From an uncultured Planctomycetales bacterium (GTDB lineage: Bacteria > Omnitrophota > Gorgyraeia > Zapsychrales > GWA2-47-8): a stretch of DNA of 57,881 nt. Positions 17,014 to 27,537 of this stretch are shown here, in pieces. Location: positions 3,784 through 61,664 of the forward strand of contig CAZCLW010000008.1 in the NCBI GenBank assembly GCA_964499685.1. Direction: 5' to 3'. Under the pieces are notes generated by a model. The model did not search any database. It was not told where the DNA came from and saw only the letters and a program-made list of their open reading frames with translations. The stretch's first letter is position 1, and the number at the start of each line of letters is the position of its first letter. Made by a program: the position numbers and the translations under genes.

Positions 17014-17030
17014 TGGTGGAGGTGCCGGGG
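17014..17030. repeat. Distal attachment-site repeat: a 17-bp copy of the tmRNA 3' acceptor end
   Basis: TGGTGGAGGTGCCGGGG is identical to 27147-27163. On the minus strand it reads CCCCGGCACCTCCACCA. Confidence 0.75.
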
Positions 17031-17115
17031 GCAGAGAAAACAATAGTTAGAAACATCTACCCTGTAAACACTTATAAAGATTATAAAACATTCCAACACC
17101 ATTTCCACCACCAAT

Positions 17116-17925
17116 TTACTTATCGAACTTCGATTTGACTTTAATTAACCACTTAAATGAATAATCCTTACTCCATTCTAACACTCGATCCAGCATATAT
17201 TGATATATGAAAACTTCGTCGTACTGACTCTTCGAAAGGGCATCATTTAATTCGTTAAACCCCTTTAAATCTTCGACATAAACAATACCCATATTTTGTG
17301 AAATAGTATGCCCGCTAACGATTAAAAGCCAAGTTTGATCATACCCATCGCCTACTGATTTACTTTTTGCTTTTACAATGTTTATAAGCTCTACCTCATT
17401 CAAACCAACCATTCCTCCTGAATGATTCCACTCCCATGTGTAGTAACAATTAACCTTGGCAATTCTCACAAATTTTAAATACTCTGTCAATAAACTCTTG
17501 TCCGGTGGCTCGAAATCTTGATGAAACCCTGAAACATCTTTTAATTTTTCTTTTACAAATGAGAGCAATTGATTAGCAAACTCCCGGTGTTCTCTTTTAG
17601 GTGGCACTTTGAGCTTACTAAATCGAAGATAACAAGCGATGTCATCGAATTCATTATAAGCTTTACGTTCCTGTGAAATAGCATCTTGAAGCTTCTTCCA
17701 AGTTTCTTCAATACTACGACGAGGAATTCCTCCTTCACCTGTAGCATCAGAGTGAAATTCTGTTATTTCGGTGGCTATCTTTTTCTTTTGTGGAGAAACA
17801 ATAATATAGTCTGGAGGATCATCTCCTCTGGCAATACTGGAATCGTTCCAATTGATTAATGACAAAAAATTCTTAAGATAGAATTCTTCGTCATGTTCTT
17901 GACTAATTTTATTCTGGCTTGTCAT
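17116..17925 (-). CDS. Hypothetical protein at the island edge, with a weak PD-(D/E)xK-like signature
   Basis: 269 aa. The N-terminal region reads DDPPDYIIV...ATEITEFHSD, which could be a D...ExT/K nuclease-like core. The rest is not recognisable. Confidence 0.4.
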   Translation of the reverse strand: MTSQNKISQEHDEEFYLKNFLSLINWNDSSIARGDDPPDYIIVSPQKKKIATEITEFHSDATGEGGIPRRSIEETWKKLQDAISQERKAYNEFDDIACYLRFSKLKVPPKREHREFANQLLSFVKEKLKDVSGFHQDFEPPDKSLLTEYLKFVRIAKVNCYYTWEWNHSGGMVGLNEVELINIVKAKSKSVGDGYDQTWLLIVSGHTISQNMGIVYVEDLKGFNELNDALSKSQYDEVFIYQYMLDRVLEWSKDYSFKWLIKVKSKFDK

Positions 17926-17935
17926 CGCATTCCTT

Positions 17936-19012
17936 TTATATTCTAGTAGAGGCTAAAACTTTCTTTCGACCAACTTCTGTTGAAAACGAGTAATGTTTGA
18001 GCAATACATTGATATCAGTGTGGCCGGTAATGCCCATAACATCCTTTAGGGCTAAACCGTCTCGGGCTGCTTCGGTTACTAAAGACCTTCTAAAGTCGTG
18101 AGGCGTAATCCGTCTGTCGATGATTTCTTGACTAATCCTAACAAGGTAGTTCCTGTAGTGGTCCGCTTTAATTTTGTTGCGCTTAGAATTATAAAAAAGC
18201 CATTGGGTTTCGGAACCATCTGCTAAAAAAACCTTAATTACCTTGGCTAAGTCTGCATCAATAGATTCTAAAACAAAATCCTTCTTATTTTTTCTAATAG
18301 CTGCTTCCAGTTTTATTGATATCGGCTCTTTCCCTTCCATCTCAATGTTATATCTTTTGATACTGAGGGTTTCTTCTATTCGCCAGCCTAACCTCATTAG
18401 AAAGTAGGTTACACCGAAATAGCAGGGTCTATCCACCTTAACAAAATCTAGTAAAGCTATTTTATCCTCTTTGCTTATAGGAGTAAAACTTTTGCTACTA
18501 TATTCTGGTCTCTTAATATCTTCCAAGAATTCTGTTATTCCCTTTTCACAATAACCCAAACGCGCCAGACGTCGAATAATTGCTTTAAGCGTTCCTAATT
18601 CTGAACGCCAGCCGGCTATTCTTTTAAGATCCATCGTTACATAGTTCTTGTATTCGTATAAACACTCTAGCCTGAGGTCAGTGAGTCTTTTAATTATCGG
18701 ATATCTTGATGGAAGAAAGGTCAAAAAAAATAGGTCAAATGTGCTACGACTCCTATTTCGGGTTTTATATGCCAGACTGTCTGACTCCATATCTCTTATC
18801 AATTGGTTCCTCAGAACATTAAAGTCAGCGTTCAACTTATTATGATTATTAGATTGGAAGCTTGATAAATATTCATCCATTAACTTTATTTTAATATTGT
18901 AAGCCTCTCGAAATGAAAGAGCCCTAACGCGCCGCTGATACCGCTTCATGCCTTTACCAAGCCTAAAGTTTATTTCGTAAACACCTTTAGCAATTTTTCT
19001 TACGCCATCCAT
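17936..19012 (-). CDS. int: Tyrosine recombinase / phage-type integrase
   Basis: 358 aa. The C-terminal catalytic domain has GWRIEETLSI (Arg I), HDFRRSLVT (HxxR) and GHTDINVLLKHYSF (His...Tyr). Confidence 0.9.
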   Translation of the reverse strand: MDGVRKIAKGVYEINFRLGKGMKRYQRRVRALSFREAYNIKIKLMDEYLSSFQSNNHNKLNADFNVLRNQLIRDMESDSLAYKTRNRSRSTFDLFFLTFLPSRYPIIKRLTDLRLECLYEYKNYVTMDLKRIAGWRSELGTLKAIIRRLARLGYCEKGITEFLEDIKRPEYSSKSFTPISKEDKIALLDFVKVDRPCYFGVTYFLMRLGWRIEETLSIKRYNIEMEGKEPISIKLEAAIRKNKKDFVLESIDADLAKVIKVFLADGSETQWLFYNSKRNKIKADHYRNYLVRISQEIIDRRITPHDFRRSLVTEAARDGLALKDVMGITGHTDINVLLKHYSFSTEVGRKKVLASTRI

Positions 19013-19029
19013 CCCTTATCTCCATAAAA

Positions 19030-19080
19030 TAAAAAGGAACACCTTTGAATCAGGACTCCCAATCCTGATAAGTGTGTTCC
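19030..19080 (-). terminator. Hairpin plus T-tract between the small ORF and the integrase gene
   Basis: Outer arms are GGAACAC (19036-19042) and GTGTTCC (19074-19080). Inner arms are ATCAGGA and TCCTGAT. On the minus strand it is followed by TTTTTATTTTAT. Confidence 0.5.
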
Positions 19081-19108
19081 CTCGAAAACACGTCTGTATA
19101 ATTTAAGA

Positions 19109-19324
19109 CTACAACTTAAACTTTTCGGTTCGCTTAACTGAAAATCTACTTTTTGCTATCTTTAATTCTTCTTCGACTGCGGTAAAGATTTTATCCATCT
19201 CGTCCTGACCATACTCGTAGTGATTCCGGTTTCCTAAGTTGCCAATCAAACGAATTTCATGTAAAAGTCGATCAACACGTTTCGGTGCAACTCTCTTGAA
19301 TTTTTGATGCGGTGTCTCTGTCAT
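19109..19324 (-). CDS. Small hypothetical protein (71 aa)
   Basis: Basic N-terminus (KFKRVAPKRVDRLL). No domain recognised. It lies between the two recombinase genes. Confidence 0.4.
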   Translation of the reverse strand: MTETPHQKFKRVAPKRVDRLLHEIRLIGNLGNRNHYEYGQDEMDKIFTAVEEELKIAKSRFSVKRTEKFKL

Positions 19325-19387
19325 TTATATTCTCCGTATAGCAGTTATATGGAGAATCTAAAGCATATATGATAACATGTCAAGAGT

Positions 19388-20161
19388 TTATTTTTGAACC
19401 CTTAAGAACAGGCGCCTACTGATAAGTGGCTGGTGAACGCCTTTCACTGAAATATCACCAAAAGAACTTTCACCACAATACAGGCTATTGCCCAACAAAT
19501 ACTTCAGGGAGTCGATTGAGAACTGCTTTCCCCTCTTGGAGACAACACCATGACGATTTAGAGATTTAATAATTCTTGTATAACTAAAACCTTTTGATCT
19601 CCACCTAAAGATTTTATCAACCCAATTGGATTCATTCTCATCAGGAATCAACACATCATCTAGTTTTCGATATCCAAAAGGAATGGGACCAGAACCTCGC
19701 TCCCCATTCTTAGCATTATTAATTCGCCCTTCTTTCAGCCTAGAGGCAATTACATCTTTTTCAAGCTCTGCGAAGATGTCGGCAATACGCTTAAAAGCTT
19801 TCTGCAAAGGATCTTCCATATCATAGTCAGGGTCGCAGACAGAATGCAGCTCAACATCATATTTCTTAAATTGAGTTTCAATCCATAAGGCAACAGTCAA
19901 CTCTCGACTTAGCCTGTCCTGCTTATAAACAATTACTCTTTTGACTTTACCGGATTCACAATCTTTAAGAAGCCCCAAGAGACCGGGCCTATCTTTGACC
20001 GCACCACTTATACCCCGATCTTCATAAAATACTTCAACCTCTAACTTATGCTCCTCACAGTATTCAATGATCTTACGCTTCTGGATTTCCAGACCGTCCC
20101 CATTTTCAACTTGATTTGCTGTAGAAACCCTCAAATATCCGACGATACCATTTGAATTCAT
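19388..20161 (-). CDS. Serine recombinase (resolvase catalytic domain plus recombinase domain, short form)
   Basis: 257 aa with GYLRVSTANQ (catalytic Ser), RGISGA, VIVYKQDRLSRE, then a recombinase-domain-like GPIPFGYRK...W..KIF. It lacks the long zinc-ribbon/coiled-coil tail of large serine integrases. Confidence 0.88.
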   Translation of the reverse strand: MNSNGIVGYLRVSTANQVENGDGLEIQKRKIIEYCEEHKLEVEVFYEDRGISGAVKDRPGLLGLLKDCESGKVKRVIVYKQDRLSRELTVALWIETQFKKYDVELHSVCDPDYDMEDPLQKAFKRIADIFAELEKDVIASRLKEGRINNAKNGERGSGPIPFGYRKLDDVLIPDENESNWVDKIFRWRSKGFSYTRIIKSLNRHGVVSKRGKQFSIDSLKYLLGNSLYCGESSFGDISVKGVHQPLISRRLFLRVQK

Positions 20162-20330
20162 ATAACACCTCTCTTTCTACAATAGTAGAACCATAATTTT
20201 AGCTAGGTGTCAAATATTGGCTTTGGAAGGAAGACGGAAACAAAGGTCTAAATTGTAGGAACTTACTGAGGGATAATCATTTAGATATAAAAAAGGAAAA
20301 GTTTTTTAGAAAAATCTTTAGTAAATATAA

Positions 20331-21518
20331 TTAAATAAGCTTCCTAATTTGATTTAGCTGACTTTTAAGCGACTTGCCACCAAGTATATTATCAAAATAT
20401 TTTTCTACGCCTCCATAATGGAACTTTATCCTGTCCTTCCCGAAAAAGTCAATATATCTAGTCACCGCAAAACATCTTTTCAAATCTTCACTGATCTTAT
20501 GCGGAGGCCTATCGCTTCCTCTTAGGACAACATCAATTACTACAGCAGGATTAACTGCTCTCCTCACTAATGTTCTAAAATGATAATCGGCCTCGGGCAA
20601 CGAGTAACCAATAAACACAATTTTATTGGCTTCGGATAACTCTACATAGGCATTGTTCCATACAGATTGAATATGAGTATTATCAAATATTTTTAAAAAC
20701 GTGGGCGTTATAATGAAAGATTCAAGGATTGGTTTCATATCTTTATTAAATTTATTGCAGTGTGTACAAATTCGCTTCTTTACATATAATTCCCACACAT
20801 TCTCAGTTGAGCCGAGACCTGTAAATAACTTTTCGCAATTGGGACATAGTAACCAATTTGTTGATCCATGCAATTTTAATAATTTGATATTATATACCCG
20901 TTTTGCTCTTTGCAAGATTGATGGAATATGTTTTGCTCGTTTGCCGACTTTAGAAGAATAGCAACAAAAATCGACACCTATCTTTCTATGTCCATTGACT
21001 GAAACAAGACAATGTTCTATCGAACTTTCAACTAACGAATCCCAGTTTAAAGATATAATACTGAATGGATCCTTTCTTAACCCTGCCTTCATCCTCTCAA
21101 TAATTAAATAAGCTGCAAATCTTCTGTAAAAATCATCTTTCTTTTCAGCATATTTATTAATCGCATTATGAAAAAGAATTAAAATTAATCGCTTCAAGGC
21201 GTCACGAGTATTATCTAAAGATCGCCAAGTATCGCCTAAACAATAATTTCTTTTTGCAATTGATTGATCCAAGAGGGTAAAAACATCTTCCAGCGGTGGG
21301 GTGGCATTGGAGGTAAATATTCTTTTCAAAAATTTCTCTACAAGCTGCTTATTTGGTAAAACCTCATTTGTTACCAAATCCAAATCTGGGCCACTTAAGA
21401 TATCGATGTCTAAATCAAAAACTTTCTTTAAAATCTGACGCTGAACCGGCACCTCCCCAGCGACTGAGAATCCAGCTCCTAAAATATATACGGTCTTTGA
21501 CGTTATAGTTTTTTTCAT
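20331..21518 (-). CDS. SIR2-like (SIR2_2 / defence-type sirtuin fold) protein with a CxxC...CxxC zinc ribbon
   Basis: 395 aa with YILGAGFS (Rossmann Gly loop), ISLNWDSLVE (the TTNYD-like motif of SIR2_2 proteins), LKLHGSTNWLLCPNC...CTHC (sirtuin-style HG plus Zn ribbon) and VFIGYSLPEADYH. Confidence 0.75.
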   Translation of the reverse strand: MKKTITSKTVYILGAGFSVAGEVPVQRQILKKVFDLDIDILSGPDLDLVTNEVLPNKQLVEKFLKRIFTSNATPPLEDVFTLLDQSIAKRNYCLGDTWRSLDNTRDALKRLILILFHNAINKYAEKKDDFYRRFAAYLIIERMKAGLRKDPFSIISLNWDSLVESSIEHCLVSVNGHRKIGVDFCCYSSKVGKRAKHIPSILQRAKRVYNIKLLKLHGSTNWLLCPNCEKLFTGLGSTENVWELYVKKRICTHCNKFNKDMKPILESFIITPTFLKIFDNTHIQSVWNNAYVELSEANKIVFIGYSLPEADYHFRTLVRRAVNPAVVIDVVLRGSDRPPHKISEDLKRCFAVTRYIDFFGKDRIKFHYGGVEKYFDNILGGKSLKSQLNQIRKLI

Positions 21519-21533
21519 TCTTTAACATTACCT

Positions 21534-22886
21534 TCAGAGCCCTTGAATAATTCGCGACCAAGTCCGACAATGCTCTACACTGATTGACTTCGAATGGTTG
21601 GCGAAAATCTGAATTGTATCATCAAGCGTGTCTAGAATATTCTGCTTTGTCATTGGCTGTCGATACTCTTTATGTTTCGACCACATGTAATGTGACACTG
21701 TTAATTTCTTTGTTTCGGGCAACGGGTACGATTTTCCACTCTTAGTGTTTCCAGTAATACCGTATTTTGCAAAATCAACTTCGGGGTCTGTTCTTATTAC
21801 TGCTCTACATTGCTTACAATCGCAAACTTTCTTAAAGTAGGAACCTACATTTTTGTTGCCTTCAACAATTCTTATCGCTCTAAAAGCGTCTCTATACAAC
21901 AATCTTGCATGAAGAGACGGAAAATAAAATTTTGCAGTTGGGAATCCTCCGCCAACAGGCACAACGCCTCGAGTTTCTCCATATTCCAAACTATGAGCGA
22001 CTCCTATCAAATTCTTGATAATTCCGCTTTTTCCTAAAGCTACAGAAAAATAACTACCATATAAATTAATGACGGGAGCCACCCTGCCGAGATGCTGAAG
22101 GAAATGAATAAATGCTTCTAAAGTTTTCTGATTGGCTTCTTGCTCTACAAGAGAATCGACCCAAATAAGAAAATAGTCGGGTCTGGTAGAACTGTATGCA
22201 TTTACCAACGTTCTCAGATTGCTTGGACTTGTCAGCAAGTCTTGCGATATTGTAATTTGAAGCGCTAATTTCTTATTAAACTTTTTAGATATACTTTTTG
22301 AAGCATTAGCACATTTAATATTTATATCAAGCCACTGTGCGACATTAGAAGGTCGAAGGAAAAAATATGGAGCAACCAACATGAGAGGCGTAAAGATTGA
22401 TTGGGTTTTTATATTAGAGTATTGATAATATGGAGTGGCATCTGATTTATTTATTTCATCCGATATTGCCCGCATCTGAAAAGTCAAGACCCTCTTACAA
22501 AAATCACTTAATATTTTCTTATTCCTAAAATCAGCTGGTTCTAATGGCCTCGATTGTTTCACAACACTACTTAAAACAGGCTCTCCGTAAACATCGATTA
22601 ACTTCTGAAGAGATAATTTAACTTTTCCGGATCTCATGCCGGACTTAGCGGTTATGTTTGCTATATCATGCTGAAAGGCGTGTGTTTGAGGGTCGATAAA
22701 ATACGGTTTATTTTTGGCTTTTATGGACAAGAAGGTAGCCAATGCACCTCGCATATATGCTAAAATACCAGCGTTGATGATGAGATCGTCATATGTACTA
22801 AGAAACTCCCCCAAAAGAAATTCCTGATCTCCAGCTGTGCCAAAACGCACTAAATGAGAACCCGATAGAGAGCTTTGCTTTTTCAA
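21534..22886 (-). CDS. 450-aa protein of unknown function, with a CxCxxC motif and possible TGT/DpdA-like TIM-barrel features
   Basis: A TTG start directly abuts the upstream TAG stop, with an AGAGGA RBS inside the upstream gene. It contains YFIDPQTHAFQ (compare the DSGGFQ / DSGAF strand-end Asp of TGT/DpdA) and VCDCKQC followed by downstream His residues (compare the TGT Zn site CxCxxC...H). This is motif-level resemblance only. Confidence 0.35.
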   Translation of the reverse strand: MKKQSSLSGSHLVRFGTAGDQEFLLGEFLSTYDDLIINAGILAYMRGALATFLSIKAKNKPYFIDPQTHAFQHDIANITAKSGMRSGKVKLSLQKLIDVYGEPVLSSVVKQSRPLEPADFRNKKILSDFCKRVLTFQMRAISDEINKSDATPYYQYSNIKTQSIFTPLMLVAPYFFLRPSNVAQWLDINIKCANASKSISKKFNKKLALQITISQDLLTSPSNLRTLVNAYSSTRPDYFLIWVDSLVEQEANQKTLEAFIHFLQHLGRVAPVINLYGSYFSVALGKSGIIKNLIGVAHSLEYGETRGVVPVGGGFPTAKFYFPSLHARLLYRDAFRAIRIVEGNKNVGSYFKKVCDCKQCRAVIRTDPEVDFAKYGITGNTKSGKSYPLPETKKLTVSHYMWSKHKEYRQPMTKQNILDTLDDTIQIFANHSKSISVEHCRTWSRIIQGL

Positions 22887-23306
22887 CTATGTCCTCTGAT
22901 TTGTTTTAAGATATTTTCTAAGATGAGAACGAGCCGTAGACCAAGTATCACTAGATTTGGGAGCTTCTAAAGCGATTTCAAATGGCCAGCTACCTTTTTC
23001 AGAATAAAATTTTAATCCTACGCCTGCTTCACTTAACGCTCTTTTCATCTCTTGCGTAATCTCTCGTTTTGGCATGCAAATATAGGCAAAATCAGCACCT
23101 AATCTATGATCAGATGATTGCTTTATCGCCCTACGCCAATCTTTGATCTTGAATTCAACTGTTATGATAAACTTATGCTTAATGTACACTAAATCCACCA
23201 TCCTTCCAAGAAAAGGGACTTCGCAACAAACCAAAAAAGAAGACATTCGTCTTATTTTCTTATAGGCTCCATTCACTATTCTTTTTTCGGTTGTTTTAGT
23301 AGCCAT
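22887..23306 (-). CDS. Small PD-(D/E)xK-like nuclease-fold protein (139 aa)
   Basis: I use the internal start MATKTTEKR at 23306, which has a GAGG RBS 8 nt upstream and lies 2 nt after the upstream stop. The core reads GRMVDLVYI...IITVEFKIKDW...QSSDH...YICMP, which fits a D...ExK nuclease motif. Confidence 0.5.
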   Translation of the reverse strand: MATKTTEKRIVNGAYKKIRRMSSFLVCCEVPFLGRMVDLVYIKHKFIITVEFKIKDWRRAIKQSSDHRLGADFAYICMPKREITQEMKRALSEAGVGLKFYSEKGSWPFEIALEAPKSSDTWSTARSHLRKYLKTNQRT

Positions 23307-23308
23307 GA

Positions 23309-23911
23309 TTAGGACCTCAGAATTTTGTCGCTTATCTTTGATTTCTCGGTCGTTTCTGGATACTTTGTGTATACGTATTTTAAAAGGGCAGTTAAAGAAA
23401 CACCTGCACAACGCTCCTTAAATTTGTCCAGTATTTCCCATTGACTTGAGTTGAATGTATCAACAAGTTTATCTTTAACAAAACTCTTTCCTTTTTGACT
23501 CAAAGAAAATTCCACAGAGTCCATTTTAGGATTGTCGGCCTCTACGACGCCTGAGTTTGCCTGCCAATACTTATATTCCGATTCTTCTTCTTGACTTGGT
23601 TTTCTATTGGCTAGACTCTTGGCGGTCACAAAATTCAAATTGACTAAAAACTCCAAATCAACATACACCTGCTCCGAAAATGGACCAAAGTCATGCGGGT
23701 CAAATTTAGGAAAAATATCATCCGGAACTGCTTGGCCTAGATTAAATTTCTTCCGTATCTCCTTATCAAAAAGAAAAACCATTTTCATTAATCGAGTACG
23801 GTCCTGTATAGGTTCACAGATTTTACCTTTATGCCCGCGAGCATATAATAAAACCATTATTAAGTCTTTCGTACTTGTTAGTTTACTCATTGCATTCACC
23901 CCAGTATTCAT
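23309..23911 (-). CDS. Panacea/SocA-like (DUF4065) wHTH protein
   Basis: 200 aa. The stretch RTRLMKMVFLFDKEI...FDPHDFGPFSEQVYVDLEFL resembles the DUF4065 pattern (LxKLLY..D...., then ...GP.S..vy..l). The start may be MSKLTS at 23890, which has a GGGGTGA RBS. Confidence 0.45.
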   Translation of the reverse strand: MNTGVNAMSKLTSTKDLIMVLLYARGHKGKICEPIQDRTRLMKMVFLFDKEIRKKFNLGQAVPDDIFPKFDPHDFGPFSEQVYVDLEFLVNLNFVTAKSLANRKPSQEEESEYKYWQANSGVVEADNPKMDSVEFSLSQKGKSFVKDKLVDTFNSSQWEILDKFKERCAGVSLTALLKYVYTKYPETTEKSKISDKILRS

Positions 23912-24063
23912 TTGATTTATAACTGATTATAATTCTAAGATTATACAAAATCAATACAACAAGCAAATATCACCCCGAGGGCAATATTTACCACACATAC
24001 AGTGAAAGTCTAATTATCCGCCTAGTAAATTACTCTCTGAGAGAGTGCTTGGGGTAAAATCTT

Positions 24064-24576
24064 TCAGGAAGACAGTTCTATGCTTGTAACCTTCCGTTCT
24101 GCTCTTTGTTGATACGCAGAATCCTTCAATCTTTCATAGATTTTCTTTGCTTCGGGGAGGCCTTGCAGATTAAGGGTGCGGTCTGATTTATCCAGCGAAG
24201 TTACGGCGATTGTTCCAGTCTTAAATATTCGATCCCAAATACCTTGCTTAAAGTTGATATCTTTAATTCTCCAGACATCAGAAGTCTCGTGATTTCGACT
24301 TAGAAGGCCTGTCGTCCGATCAATTATTTTTGATGTAATTTTATAATCTTCTGTATTGACATTAATCGCCAAGCCGATGAGAAAAAGCAATCCTAGCCCA
24401 TACACTGGAATGAAAAGAATACACAATATAAGAGGGGTCACATAACCCTTCCAAGATGCCTTACCCTCATACAGTACTTCTTCTTTCGATGGAGATGAGC
24501 TTAAATCCTTTTTACAATGTCTACAGAAAATTGCCTCATCTTGAATTTCCTCTGCACAGAAAGGACATTTTTTCAT
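24064..24576 (-). CDS. Zinc-ribbon, two TM helices and a bPH (DUF304-like) domain membrane protein
   Basis: 170 aa. N-terminal CPFCAEEI...CRHC ribbon, then two hydrophobic helices, then YKITSKIIDRTTGLLSRNHETSDVWRIKDINFKQGIWDRIFKTGTI, typical of membrane-flanked bacterial PH domains. Confidence 0.6.
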   Translation of the reverse strand: MKKCPFCAEEIQDEAIFCRHCKKDLSSSPSKEEVLYEGKASWKGYVTPLILCILFIPVYGLGLLFLIGLAINVNTEDYKITSKIIDRTTGLLSRNHETSDVWRIKDINFKQGIWDRIFKTGTIAVTSLDKSDRTLNLQGLPEAKKIYERLKDSAYQQRAERKVTSIELSS

Positions 24577-24668
24577 ATTACTCTCCTATTAAAGGGTTAG
24601 TCTAAATATGAAATTTTGTAGACGATAGTCTGTAGATATATAGCCTACAATGTGGGATTGTATATCCC

Positions 24669-24905
24669 ATGAGCAGTAAAGGCAAGATAAAAGTTGTTCC
24701 TGAGAAATTTGGACTTATAGTTCGCAGACGACGCCACAACCTCAATCTTTCTCAGGAAGAATTTGCCGAGAAGGCTGGTATCCATAGGACTTACGTCAGC
24801 GATATAGAACTCGGCAAGGTTGACATCAGCCTCACTGTTGCCACTAAGATCGCATCCGCTTTAAAAACGCCCCTCAGTTCTCTTCTCAAAGAATCAGAAC
24901 GATAA
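24669..24905 (+). CDS. XRE-family helix-turn-helix transcriptional regulator
   Basis: 78 aa with LNLSQEEFAEKAGIHRTYVSDIELGK, a classic Cro/CI HTH. It is divergent from the bPH gene. Confidence 0.88.
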   Translation: MSSKGKIKVVPEKFGLIVRRRRHNLNLSQEEFAEKAGIHRTYVSDIELGKVDISLTVATKIASALKTPLSSLLKESER

Positions 24906-25031
24906 CCCTCTAGTAGCCTCAACATTGAAATTTCAGAAATTAAAAAGGGAAAATCCTTTGCTAATTATTGAACGTGGCTACTAAGTCAAACTACGAAGTT
25001 CAGAGGCTATTCAGTTAGTCTTGCACAAACC

Positions 25032-26351
25032 CTAATAGCATTCCTTCCATGTCTTGCCTGAACGGATAGTAACAGGAAACTTGAGACCGTTGATCTCCAT
25101 CTCCATGATAGCTCTAATCTGAGCCTTGCTTTGCTCCAACAGATTATCTGAGACAGTGAACAGAATACCGTCGTGCAACATCGTATTGATAATAAACCCT
25201 GCTTGATGAAGACCAACCATGGCAAACTTAACAATATCAGCTGCGGTTCCCTGAATCTGGTGATTGACGACCCTGCGTTCTGCTTTCTTACTGGCTGAGA
25301 TGTTGGGAGAGTTAATGTCGAGAAGAAACCGCCTACGACCATAGAACGTGTCAGAATATCCAGAGACCCTTGCCTTTTCAATCTGTTCCATTTTGTAACG
25401 TTCAATCTCAGGAATATTTTTCTTATAAGCGTCCATTAACTTTTGGGCTTCGCCAGTTGTGATGTTAAGCTTCCGAGCAAGACCAACAGCTTCCTGACCG
25501 TATGATTGACCAAAATTGAGAGCCTTACCCAACTTCCTTTGGTTGTCAGTGACAGAGTGGTATGGAATACCTTTCATATCAGCCACAACTTTACGGTGAA
25601 GATCGAGACCAGTAGCCCAACAATTTTTAAAGTAAATGTCGTGGGCCAAAGCGGACAGAATCCTTAGCTCGAAAGAATCATAGTCCGCTAAAACAAAAGA
25701 ACAGCCTGAATCAGCATGGATAACATCTCTAGCCAGTTCTGGGATGGATTGAAAAGAATAATTCTTGGTATAGAGCCTACCGGATGGACAGGTATCGACA
25801 TAGCGACAGAATATCTTGCCAGTATCTTTGTTAGTAGCCTTGTGAATGGCCTTGAGTGATGAGAGTAAATCCTCTAACTCCCGATATTTAGTTATCTGAT
25901 CAGTAACAGGATTATTAATGTTACGCAGGATATATCTTGAAGTGGATGGACGACCTGACTTAGTTTTCTGAACTTTAACCGCTAACTTTGACAACAAAAT
26001 ATCTGCAACATCTTTGGAACTATTGAAGTTAATTTGGTCTGAAATCCCTAATACTTCACACAAATTCTGTCCTAATTCTGCTTTATGAAATTCTACTTTC
26101 CTGATGAGTACTTCCAGCTCGACTAGGTCAACGTTTAAACCTCTGTTTTCCATCGAGGCAATAACGTTCATCGTGTCCTGCTCTAAATCTTTTATCATCT
26201 GGCTGTGCATAGTAATTTCTTCGTAGTCCTCGTTTAGTAATATCAAGGGAGCGTTCCCCCGACCGCCCCCTTGATTAATAGATAAACCATCACGTTTTTT
26301 AGACGTCAAGAAAAATTTTTGAGCAAATAATTTACTCGTCGACATTTTCAT
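25032..26351 (-). CDS. Family A DNA polymerase, polymerase domain only, with no recognisable exonuclease domains
   Basis: 439 aa. Motif A is LADYDSFELRIL, motif B is RKLGKALNFGQSYG, then GRRR and NHQIQGTAADI. Motif C reads MLHDGILF (HDG instead of HDE). The start overlaps the Rep stop (ATGA). Confidence 0.88.
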   Translation of the reverse strand: MKMSTSKLFAQKFFLTSKKRDGLSINQGGGRGNAPLILLNEDYEEITMHSQMIKDLEQDTMNVIASMENRGLNVDLVELEVLIRKVEFHKAELGQNLCEVLGISDQINFNSSKDVADILLSKLAVKVQKTKSGRPSTSRYILRNINNPVTDQITKYRELEDLLSSLKAIHKATNKDTGKIFCRYVDTCPSGRLYTKNYSFQSIPELARDVIHADSGCSFVLADYDSFELRILSALAHDIYFKNCWATGLDLHRKVVADMKGIPYHSVTDNQRKLGKALNFGQSYGQEAVGLARKLNITTGEAQKLMDAYKKNIPEIERYKMEQIEKARVSGYSDTFYGRRRFLLDINSPNISASKKAERRVVNHQIQGTAADIVKFAMVGLHQAGFIINTMLHDGILFTVSDNLLEQSKAQIRAIMEMEINGLKFPVTIRSGKTWKECY

Positions 26352-26812
26352 TGATACCTTCGGCGAATAGTATATTTATCAAAATTAACAAAGGATGGCT
26401 TAATGTACTTGCTGGCAAGATACCAGCTACCGCTCGACTCTTTTTGATATGGTTCAACTTCTGCTCTTCCGAACATTCGGTACCATTTATCCTGAATTAT
26501 TGAACAACCTTCTGGTTTTATTCCGCTAGTTAGAAGATGAATATGGACGCCATTTCGTGGGTCTTGGCCCTCAAAAACCACAAATACTCTGACAGGGTCA
26601 GAGGTTTTATTTCTTTCTTTGGGAAGGTGGTATTTAATGAAACGCTTTAAATCTCTGACTGCAGTTGGAAGAAATGTAACTTTTCGAAAGGTGAATGTTA
26701 TCCATAAATCCCAATCAAAGGAAGAAATCCAATTCTCTAACGCGATGACTTTGGGGTCATTGATTCTGGGTTCTAAGTCTTCACCAATCTTTATTCTTCG
26801 GGGGAAATTCAT
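26348..26812 (-). CDS. HUH-superfamily rolling-circle replication initiator (Rep)-like protein
   Basis: 154 aa. Motif I-like WITFTF, motif II VHIHLL (H-hydrophobic-H), motif III-like WYLASKYIKP (Tyr-containing YxxxKY). Confidence 0.6.
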   Translation of the reverse strand: MNFPRRIKIGEDLEPRINDPKVIALENWISSFDWDLWITFTFRKVTFLPTAVRDLKRFIKYHLPKERNKTSDPVRVFVVFEGQDPRNGVHIHLLTSGIKPEGCSIIQDKWYRMFGRAEVEPYQKESSGSWYLASKYIKPSFVNFDKYTIRRRYQ

Positions 26813-27033
26813 ATTTACTTTTGGATATAGCGATATACAAGAGAGTCCTTTTGAGACCCATTTTAATTTGGCTGCTCTATATCGTTTATCGACATGCCTA
26901 TCGGTGGATTAGCCAGCCCGATAGATTTGCCGACATAGTTAATACCTTGTGCAAAGCAAAAATTTACTCAGTCGAAAGAAATTCCACCACCACCGCACCA
27001 CCACAAATGAGGAAAAATTGCTAAAGATGAAAC

Positions 27034-27059
27034 AAAAAAGCCCCAGCTTGTGCTGAGGC
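27034..27059 (-). terminator. Rho-independent terminator about 90 nt downstream of the tmRNA 3' end, supplied by the island
   Basis: The minus strand reads GCCTCAGC-ACAA-GCTGGGGC followed by TTTTTTGTTT. The 8-bp stem has one mismatch. Confidence 0.5.
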
Positions 27060-27146
27060 ATATTTGTGTGAATCCTATTCAAAACAGGGGGTTTTTGCAA
27101 GTTTCCAGAGAAAATTAGCAACAGTTGGAAACTGTGATAAAAAGAA

Positions 27147-27163
27147 TGGTGGAGGTGCCGGGG
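27147..27163. repeat. Proximal attachment-site repeat, which is the functional 3' end of ssrA
   Basis: TGGTGGAGGTGCCGGGG is identical to 17014-17030. Confidence 0.75.
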
Positions 27164-27537
27164 ATCGAACCCGGGTCCTTGGGCTCCATTGCATAAGCGT
27201 CTACATGCGTAGTCTGTTTTTGATTTCATCCCGCTCCTTTAAACAGACAAACGTGAACGGGACTATCTTCCTTAAGTTTCGCTCCGCCGACGAAAGCGAT
27301 CGGTGGAGCTATCCTGCTAGGGTCATCCTAAAGAGCCGCAGGAACTCTCCCTAAGACGGCATCGCGCTATTAGGCGATGGCTGGTTCGCTGTTGAAAACG
27401 TTATTCACGATTTCTTCAGCTTGCGCTAACGTTGTGTCGTTTGCGTGTATGTGTGCCTAGATGATTAACGAGGCCAACCAGGCTTCCTCGGCATGCGACC
27501 TATACACTGAGAACTCAAGTCGAGACCAATCACCCCC
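27147..27537 (-). ncRNA. ssrA: tmRNA (SsrA), 391 nt
   Basis: The minus strand starts GGGGGTGATTGGTCTCGAC and ends GGGTTCGATCCCCGGCACCTCCACCA. The acceptor stem GGGGGUG/CACCUCC has the G3:U pair, and the T-arm is CCGGG-TTCGATC-CCCGG. The internal tag frame GCA AAC GAC ... GCC TAA TAG encodes ANDTTLAQAEEIVNNVFNSEPAIA. smpB lies 1.3 kb away. Confidence 0.93.

Follow-up and report, generated by a model that had tools for sequence, protein, structure and literature searches.

We describe a 450-aa protein that is predicted to have the fold of tRNA-guanine transglycosylases (TGTs) without being a canonical transglycosylase. It is encoded in a 57,881-nt stretch of contig CAZCLW010000008.1 from an uncultured bacterium (assembly GCA_964499685.1). 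In what follows the protein is called the target, and the whole stretch that was analysed is called the window. On the basis of its model, the target can be treated for annotation as the founding member of a highly divergent TGT-fold branch that is invisible to sequence profiles. Its gene belongs to a self-contained, horizontally mobile cassette, in which the target and two small neighbours, p200 and p174, form an invariant core and the fourth gene (SIR2-like in the window) is a swappable killing module. Our analysis of gene content makes a function in defence or conflict likely, and we lean towards a reading in which the target is the nucleic-acid-sensing or base-processing core of an abortive-infection or toxin-antitoxin-like cassette.

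Predicted fold and active site of the target

A template-free AlphaFold2 model of the target, built with 44 homologs, has a mean predicted local distance difference test score (pLDDT) of 92.6 and a predicted template modelling score of 0.92. It consists of a (β/α)8 barrel followed by a helical C-terminal zinc subdomain that bears the cysteines. The barrel strands span residues 11-15, 34-38, 62-65, 169-171, 206-213, 238-243, 272-274 and 293-299. A Foldseek search of the PDB returned tRNA-guanine transglycosylases as all of its top 50 matches (E ~5e-5, probability 1.0, full-length alignments). When VIA-align was run against 48,161 chains, the top four matches were archaeosine TGT (ArcTGT; 1iq8, Z 21.7, 303 residues, 3.5 Å), Zymomonas mobilis TGT (Z 19.8), QTRT2 (Z 17.0) and DpdA (7ui4, Z 16.0 over 278 aa). 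Behind them, generic TIM barrels (glycosidases for the most part) reached Z ≤ 14.6, and Cap10 (9ntn_B) fell below these generic barrels at Z 12.8. Re-alignment of the Foldseek list with VIA yielded dozens of TGT entries at Z 20-21.7. The TGT alignments (Z 19.8-21.0) pair model residues 1-426 with chain residues 11-383 and thus cover both the barrel and the zinc subdomain. Among the viral structures of BFVD, no match to the model was found at E ≤ 1e-3. The TGT-type TIM barrel that the initial annotation had proposed from motifs is thus supported at the level of the predicted structure, by a test that this annotation had itself suggested.

Sequence profiles, which the same annotation had put forward as a check, give a different picture. 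The target matches no model in Pfam, PADLOC (including its DpdA model), NCBIfam or PHROGs, and 0 of 87 family members match the Pfam TGT profile (PF01702) even at E ≤ 1. Sequence searches of the PDB, by phmmer with the protein and by hmmsearch with the family profile, returned nothing meaningful and no TGT. Alignment by hhalign to nine diverse TGTs was faintly positive (358 columns, pairwise P 0.0022, probability 13%), and the zinc motif was the best-supported block against canonical TGT. Against 21 closely related TGTs, the local mode of hhalign aligned the zinc motif alone and the global mode produced an end-to-end join without meaning. Neither the 301 genomes of the phylum nor the control genomes yielded a match to the PADLOC model PDLC02807 (DpdA), which makes that search uninformative.

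The target nonetheless has a sizeable family of its own. A word-indexed search found 183 relatives at E ≤ 1e-3, all annotated as hypothetical and without Pfam domains, and an exhaustive HMMER search gave 677 clusters (50% identity), of which 179 lie below 1e-30. Longer, fused forms were looked for as well and none turned up, a result that the search itself rates as weak evidence. Conservation was counted in an alignment of 87 homologous sequences with identities down to 24%. The gene and the elements discussed below are located in the window as follows.

21534-22886, minus strand: target gene, encoding the predicted TGT-fold protein of 450 aa
22668-22703, minus strand: β3-end motif YFIDPQTHAFQH (residues 62-73), positional counterpart of DSGG[FY]Q (TGT D102 / DpdA D95)
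21975-21977, minus strand: E304 in the post-β8 loop (86/87), candidate catalytic carboxylate that would replace the TGT nucleophile Asp
21807-21827, minus strand: VCDCKQC, the CxCxxC zinc motif (residues 354-360)
21690-21692, minus strand: H399 (87/87), proposed fourth zinc ligand

The gene starts with a TTG codon that abuts the stop codon of the upstream gene, p174, and a GAGGA Shine-Dalgarno sequence lies 5 nt 5' of the TTG. Seven residues are invariant in the alignment (D65, P66, W242, G314, H399, E407 and W443), and the cysteines of the zinc motif are nearly so (C355 in 86, C357 in 84 and C360 in 86 sequences). Because D65, the cysteines and H399 are kept across 84-87 of the 87 homologs, the β3-type Asp motif and VCDCKQC, on which the initial annotation had rested its case, are not chance resemblances. 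That annotation had also pointed to two histidines behind the cysteines. Both are present, H399 and H405 lying 39 and 45 residues past C360, but H405 is variable among the homologs, so only H399 is credible as the fourth zinc ligand. The Cys-to-His spacing of at least 39 residues, rightly called non-canonical, is owed to an inserted hairpin.

TGT and DpdA share three invariant active-site aspartates, namely the general acid/base (DpdA D95 / TGT D102), the base-recognition residue (DpdA D130 / TGT D156) and the nucleophile (DpdA D256 / TGT D280). They further share a His/Gln-Gly after β5 and a Gly-rich β6-α6 loop that reads the 7-substituent of the base (TGT G229-G230, DpdA G206-G207) (PMC10164549). 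By strand order, D65 of the target is the last residue of β3 (62-65), where TGT has D102, and F71-Q72 behind it stands for the [FY]-Q of TGT. A base-recognition aspartate after β4 is not conserved among the homologs, which read P-x-x-[LV]-[IV]-A-P-Y-F at 167-177, with P173-Y174-F175 at the β4 end of the target. Nor is a nucleophile aspartate conserved at 292-330, after β8, where H298 (83/87), E304 and R306 (84/87) are kept and E301 is found in just 46/87. These residues belong to a conserved loop pattern, H298-G-x-x-Y-G-E304-x-R306...P-V-G-G-G-x-P. The Gly-rich loop is not kept, and β6 ends in W242 (87/87)-[IV]-D244 (62/87)-x-x-x-E248 (84/87). The zinc ligands, CxCxxC and a downstream His, are retained in what is predicted from sequence to be a zinc site, and a helical insertion of ~100 aa separates β3 from β4. 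Since the fold and zinc site are present but the defining Asp and Gly features are missing, we do not file the target as a member of the TGT/DpdA family. The proposed likeness to TGT and DpdA thus holds for the fold, D65 and the zinc motif and fails for the base-recognition Asp, the nucleophile Asp and the Gly-rich loop.

Conservation in the family is dense at the barrel mouth. Some 25 polar, aromatic or glycine positions at strand C-termini are kept in at least 90% of members at overall identities of 24-50%, and N38, T68, Y174, W242, E248, H298, E304, R306 and Y321 form a conserved polar pocket. D65 and this pocket are kept, and the Asp that reads guanine, the Gly-rich loop and the nucleophilic Asp have been replaced. 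The target therefore probably does not exchange guanine or 7-deazaguanine, but probably does still bind or convert a ligand, namely a base flipped out of nucleic acid or a different N-glycosidic substrate within it. The post-β8 loop and the zinc region make up the positively charged part of the protein, and it is this charge, together with the retained zinc subdomain, that leads us to guess at a nucleic-acid-directed role. A housekeeping TGT identity was considered and rejected, as a canonical TGT is encoded elsewhere in the genome (519 bits, on another contig).

A conserved core with exchangeable effectors

The target gene is the third of four genes in the order p200, p174, target and SIR2, separated by gaps of 2, 0 and 15 nt and equipped with ribosome-binding sites. 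As the initial annotation had noted, the nuclease-like gene (upstream) and the SIR2-like gene (downstream) directly adjoin the target.

20331-21518, minus strand: SIR2-like effector, 395 aa, directly downstream of the target
22887-23306, minus strand: p174, a minimal PD-(D/E)xK-like protein of ~139 aa, directly upstream of the target
23309-23911, minus strand: p200, an acidic protein of 200 aa with a winged-helix core
23926-23954, minus strand: promoter-like site TTGATT-17-TATAAT just upstream of p200, weak in that the regional count of such sites is not above chance

Genome, metagenome and viral (IMG/VR) collections yielded 39, 80 and three loci, respectively. Relatives of p200 and p174 adjoin the target in 38/38 genome loci that have upstream sequence and, among metagenome loci flanked by at least 1.3 kb on each side, in 33/33. 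The fourth component is variable. In type A cassettes, SIR2 lies directly downstream of the target (20 genome loci, one of them degraded, and 28/33 metagenome loci). In type B cassettes, a 158-205-aa protein with two to three predicted transmembrane (TM) helices is encoded between p200 and p174 (18 genome loci and 5/33 metagenome loci). The sole archaeal locus has a PIN domain (PF01850, 33.8 bits) at the position of the type B insert. On two viral contigs and one Halanaerobiales contig, the target-SIR2 and p200-p174 pairs are reoriented relative to each other, which indicates that the type A cassette is composed of two bicistronic modules.

A maximum-likelihood tree of 38 copies places 18 of the 19 SIR2-linked copies in one clade (support 98/96). 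Effector type changes three times on this tree, compared with 13.7 times for shuffled labels, and phyla are intermixed within clades. Some copies show signs of decay. At L011:6986-9948 the TGT-like open reading frame (ORF) is cut to 376 aa and the SIR2 gene is down to a 65-aa fragment, and in-frame stops interrupt the SIR2 gene of L012 (8404-9675) and the p174 gene of L020 (1940-2347).

The SIR2 partner appears, from its motifs, to be catalytically intact and of the NADase type. In 17 partner SIR2s, which also have a four-Cys ribbon in common, G14-A-G16, N158-W159-D160 and H217-G-S show full invariance or at least 90% conservation. Matches of the window copy to SIR2 profiles are modest (PADLOC SIR2, E 1.6e-6; Pfam SIR2, 17.7 bits at a cut-off of 24). 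The start of p174 was corrected to M36 of a 174-aa ORF. Across 31 sequences, D38 is at least 90% conserved and E51, K53 and Q63 are invariant, giving the pattern D38...E51-x-K53, and profile matches are weak (the uncharacterised 3dnx, E 0.046; 1y88, E 0.36).

The third partner, p200, was modelled with a winged-helix core at a pLDDT of 83.8, and its structure resembles, among others, winged helix-turn-helix regulators. It matches no Pfam profile, SocA_Panacea (PF13274) included. Its neighbours in language-model feature space are clusters with 20-21% SocA_Panacea and clusters that contain PadR. The two small core proteins are oppositely charged, p200 being acidic and p174 basic. A complex prediction for target, p200 and p174 gave a median of 0.26 against a mark of 0.32, which is evidence neither way.

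Just upstream of the cassette, positions 24064-24576 (minus strand) encode a membrane-type protein with a zinc ribbon and a bacterial PH domain (bPH_2, E 3.5e-11). Between this gene and the cassette lie a terminator-like hairpin (23992-23962) and the promoter-like site.

Mobility and distribution

In the window the cassette is carried by an integrative element.

17014-27163: integrative element of ~10 kb bearing the cassette, bounded by exact 17-bp direct repeats at 17014-17030 and 27147-27163

The right-hand copy forms the 3' end of a transfer-messenger RNA gene (27147-27537, minus strand), and the cargo of the island includes tyrosine and serine recombinases and a family A polymerase. In an Omnitrophota metagenome-assembled genome (locus L001), polymerase, cassette and serine recombinase follow one another as they do in the window, with 60% identity for the polymerase and 66% for the recombinase. 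This shared gene order indicates that the whole mobile element, beyond the cassette, is common to the two genomes. The polymerase of the window (25032-26812, minus strand; PF00476, E 7e-76) is of the exonuclease-less type and lies behind a small upstream ORF; the L001 copy (L001:2830-4005) is labelled 'RTasPolA' by PADLOC. At the left end of the island, a 269-aa ORF by the tyrosine integrase (17116-17925, minus strand) has LmuA of PADLOC (E 0.009) as its only match.

The cassette is rare within its host group and widespread beyond it. In a sample of 151 genomes from the host's order, of which 90 are at least 90% complete, the family occurs in just two, and a canonical TGT is present in 25/25 genomes of that order. 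Carriers span at least 12 phyla, among them Omnitrophota, Patescibacteria (the Candidate Phyla Radiation), Planctomycetota, Verrucomicrobiota, Acidobacteriota, Bacillota, Bacteroidota, Ignavibacteriota, Zixibacteria, Cloacimonadota and Kryptoniota, as well as one Methanosarcinales archaeon. The Saccharimonadales genome that holds locus L019 (G318; 1.2 Mb, completeness not given) has no PF01702 match. If that lack holds, the TGT-fold protein works there without a host queuosine/TGT pathway.

Three IMG/VR contigs carry the cassette. In two of them (L064:6001-9849 and L065:6001-9746), both classed as viral, the pairs p200-p174 and target-SIR2 converge, and in L065 a serine recombinase adjoins, as it does in the window. 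Prophages or satellites may therefore be vehicles of the cassette. The only cultured carrier found is Moorella mulderi DSM 14980. About 1 kb upstream of its cassette, this strain encodes an 831-aa protein (L015:2479-4971) with a SIR2-like region (tblastn E 6e-15 to the window SIR2), which may be a neighbouring SIR2-based defence gene.

The sequences flanking the cassette are heterogeneous, with 156 Pfam families in 126 ORFs, among them a few resolvases, integrases, type I restriction-modification (R-M) genes, MADS genes and HNH genes. None of the 18 Pfam families that recur in at least two of these 126 ORFs is a queuosine or preQ0 family.

Proposed function and comparison with known systems

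Abortive-infection and toxin-antitoxin-like conflict systems are usually built as a fixed core joined to one of several effectors, here SIR2, a membrane protein or PIN, and it is for this reason that we consider a defence or conflict function likely. In the mechanism that we propose, the TGT-fold protein, together with p174, would detect or process invader nucleic acid. Detection would relieve a restraint of the effector that is mediated by p200, and the freed effector would then arrest or kill the cell through NAD+ consumption by SIR2, through the membrane protein or through the PIN RNase. The role of sensor or modifier for the nuclease-like and SIR2 neighbours, which the initial annotation had suggested for the target, would fit the strict gene linkage. 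In a more specific version, which we regard as possible if doubtful, the target would be a new kind of immune sensor or enzyme, flipping a nucleobase out of the invading nucleic acid so as to inspect or remove it; a hypermodified phage base or a phage tRNA position would be examples. A small nuclease and an adaptor resembling an antitoxin would link this surveillance to the loss of NAD+, to damage of the membrane or to the cleavage of RNA.

Several points weigh against a nucleic-acid-directed defence function. Both the nucleic-acid substrate and the defence function are putative, and the conserved pocket could equally serve a small-molecule reaction. The residue equivalences with TGT and DpdA were assigned from strand order in the DSSP record of the model rather than by coordinate superposition. 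Enrichment of defence genes in the flanks is modest. The top match of p200 by three methods is the C-terminal, DarT-binding chain of DarG from the DarTG system (7yk3), and this match is weak throughout (profile E 1.1, Foldseek E 6e-3, VIA-align Z 7.8). None of the described defence systems matches the cassette, in which the sole defence-library match is a partial one between p200 and PDC-M19A of PADLOC; our literature search found nothing on PDC-M19.

Other functions of the target have to be set against a sensing or base-processing core. TGT and DpdA are its nearest structures, the zinc subdomain and the acid/base Asp are kept, a PD-(D/E)xK gene always adjoins and p200 has the winged-helix core known from R-M controller proteins. 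All of this would suit genuine DpdA-like base exchange that marks host DNA, with p174 as the restriction nuclease, p200 as the controller and the SIR2, TM or PIN protein as a back-up suicide arm. We consider such a system unlikely. Two of the three aspartates that are invariant in TGT and DpdA are gone, as is the Gly-rich loop; DpdB, DpdC and preQ0 genes are found neither in the cassette nor among the recurrent flank families; the Saccharimonadales carrier, for which completeness is not given, shows no canonical TGT; and the swapping of effectors is typical of abortive infection and less so of R-M. Exchange of guanine or 7-deazaguanine after the manner of DpdA is itself unlikely because both the residues and the pathway genes are missing.

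The barrels that rank right behind the TGT group are those of glycoside hydrolases (GH5, GH35 and GH53, Z 13-14.6), and the conserved acids of the target are Glu, not the Asp set of TGT. An NAD-cleaving SIR2, moreover, adjoins the target in type A cassettes. The target might accordingly be imagined as a glycosidase-type TIM-barrel hydrolase with two carboxylates (D65 or E248, with E304) that carries out effector or signal chemistry instead of sensing. The bond cleaved would be N- or O-glycosidic and might for instance belong to ADP-ribose, to a product of NAD or to a phage DNA base that is hypermodified or glycosylated. We give this little credence, given that the glycosidases trail the TGT chains by 1.4 to 7 Z units, that those chains have the zinc subdomain in common with the target, and that the target is equally conserved beside membrane or PIN effectors without SIR2, so that its chemistry cannot depend on SIR2 products.

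A similarly low probability attaches to a catalytically dead scaffold that bridges p174 and p200 to the effector. In its favour, the third-best structural match is a TGT paralog without catalytic activity, QTRT2, and the canonical nucleophile and base-reading Asp are lost from the target. Such a scaffold would hardly explain why about 25 strand-end positions are so strongly kept, with D65, P66 and W242 in 87/87 and E304 in 86/87 sequences, a pattern usual for an active site or ligand pocket. Finally, the target might act on protein in the manner of Cap10, binding or transferring a nucleobase that is conjugated to one of its partners and thereby licensing the effector. Cap10, a TGT fold re-purposed for anti-phage defence, is a precedent and one of the structural matches. 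This reading is highly improbable, as the cassette and its vicinity lack QueC-like Cap9 and CD-NTase, Cap10 scores below generic barrels and its pattern of zinc lost and Asp kept is the opposite of that in the target family.

We therefore return to the target as a sensing or base-processing core and compare it with known systems. TGT and ArcTGT (PF01702) resemble it in having a barrel with a C-terminal CxCxxC...H subdomain and a β3-end Asp followed by an aromatic residue and Gln. They are its nearest structures (Z ~20-22 over ~300 residues), yet similarity at the level of hidden Markov models is not detectable. Unlike TGT, the target is encoded by an accessory, mobile gene in a host that has its own canonical TGT.

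TGT-fold enzymes were long believed to act on tRNA only, until DpdA (acting on DNA) and Cap10 (acting on protein) revealed repeated re-purposing of the fold in phage defence. DpdA (PDB 7UI4) is, like the target, a TGT-fold protein found beside nucleases in a phage-defence context, but keeps all three aspartates and works with DpdB, DpdC and preQ0 synthesis genes. Cap10 would share with the target the use of a TGT-fold protein to regulate abortive infection, in this case in the type IV cyclic-oligonucleotide-based anti-phage signalling system (CBASS). In Cap10 (PDB 9NTN), the zinc site and nucleic-acid surfaces are lost and the base-reading residues and D248/H226 are kept, and in TGTs the zinc subdomain stabilises nucleic-acid binding (bioRxiv 10.1101/2025.04.06.647259). 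The target, with its zinc ligands kept and its Asp set lost, displays the reverse pattern.

TGT/GNAT modules have also been predicted at the defence locus of BREX-related capture (BRC) systems (NAR 2026, PMC12839542). BRC loci encode HerA/FtsK, PglZ, BrxC-like and STAND proteins, all of which are absent here, and the description of BRC is without a SIR2, TM or PIN effector. On the effector side, the type A cassette shares its SIR2 NADase-type logic with Thoeris ThsA, DSR1/2, SIR2-HerA and SPARSA, and p200 is reminiscent of the antitoxin or adaptor in Panacea- and DarTG-type pairs. None of these SIR2-effector, Panacea or DarTG systems has a TGT-fold protein or this gene set.

A search of the full-text literature found no description of the cassette and turned up TGT homologs in defence only as Dpd, type IV CBASS and BRC. 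TGT homologs in defence are thus already known, and the gene set described here differs from all three. An annotation would be gained for a wholly hypothetical family of several hundred members, which would constitute a further TGT-fold branch with a remodelled active site, conserved partners of its own and a cultured source in M. mulderi DSM 14980. If the cassette is a defence system, the target would represent a new class of sensor or enzyme upstream of SIR2, membrane and PIN effectors. Should it indeed carry out base surveillance, Dpd, type IV CBASS and BRC would be joined by a fourth case in which immunity has recruited the TGT fold, one with a mechanism of its own.

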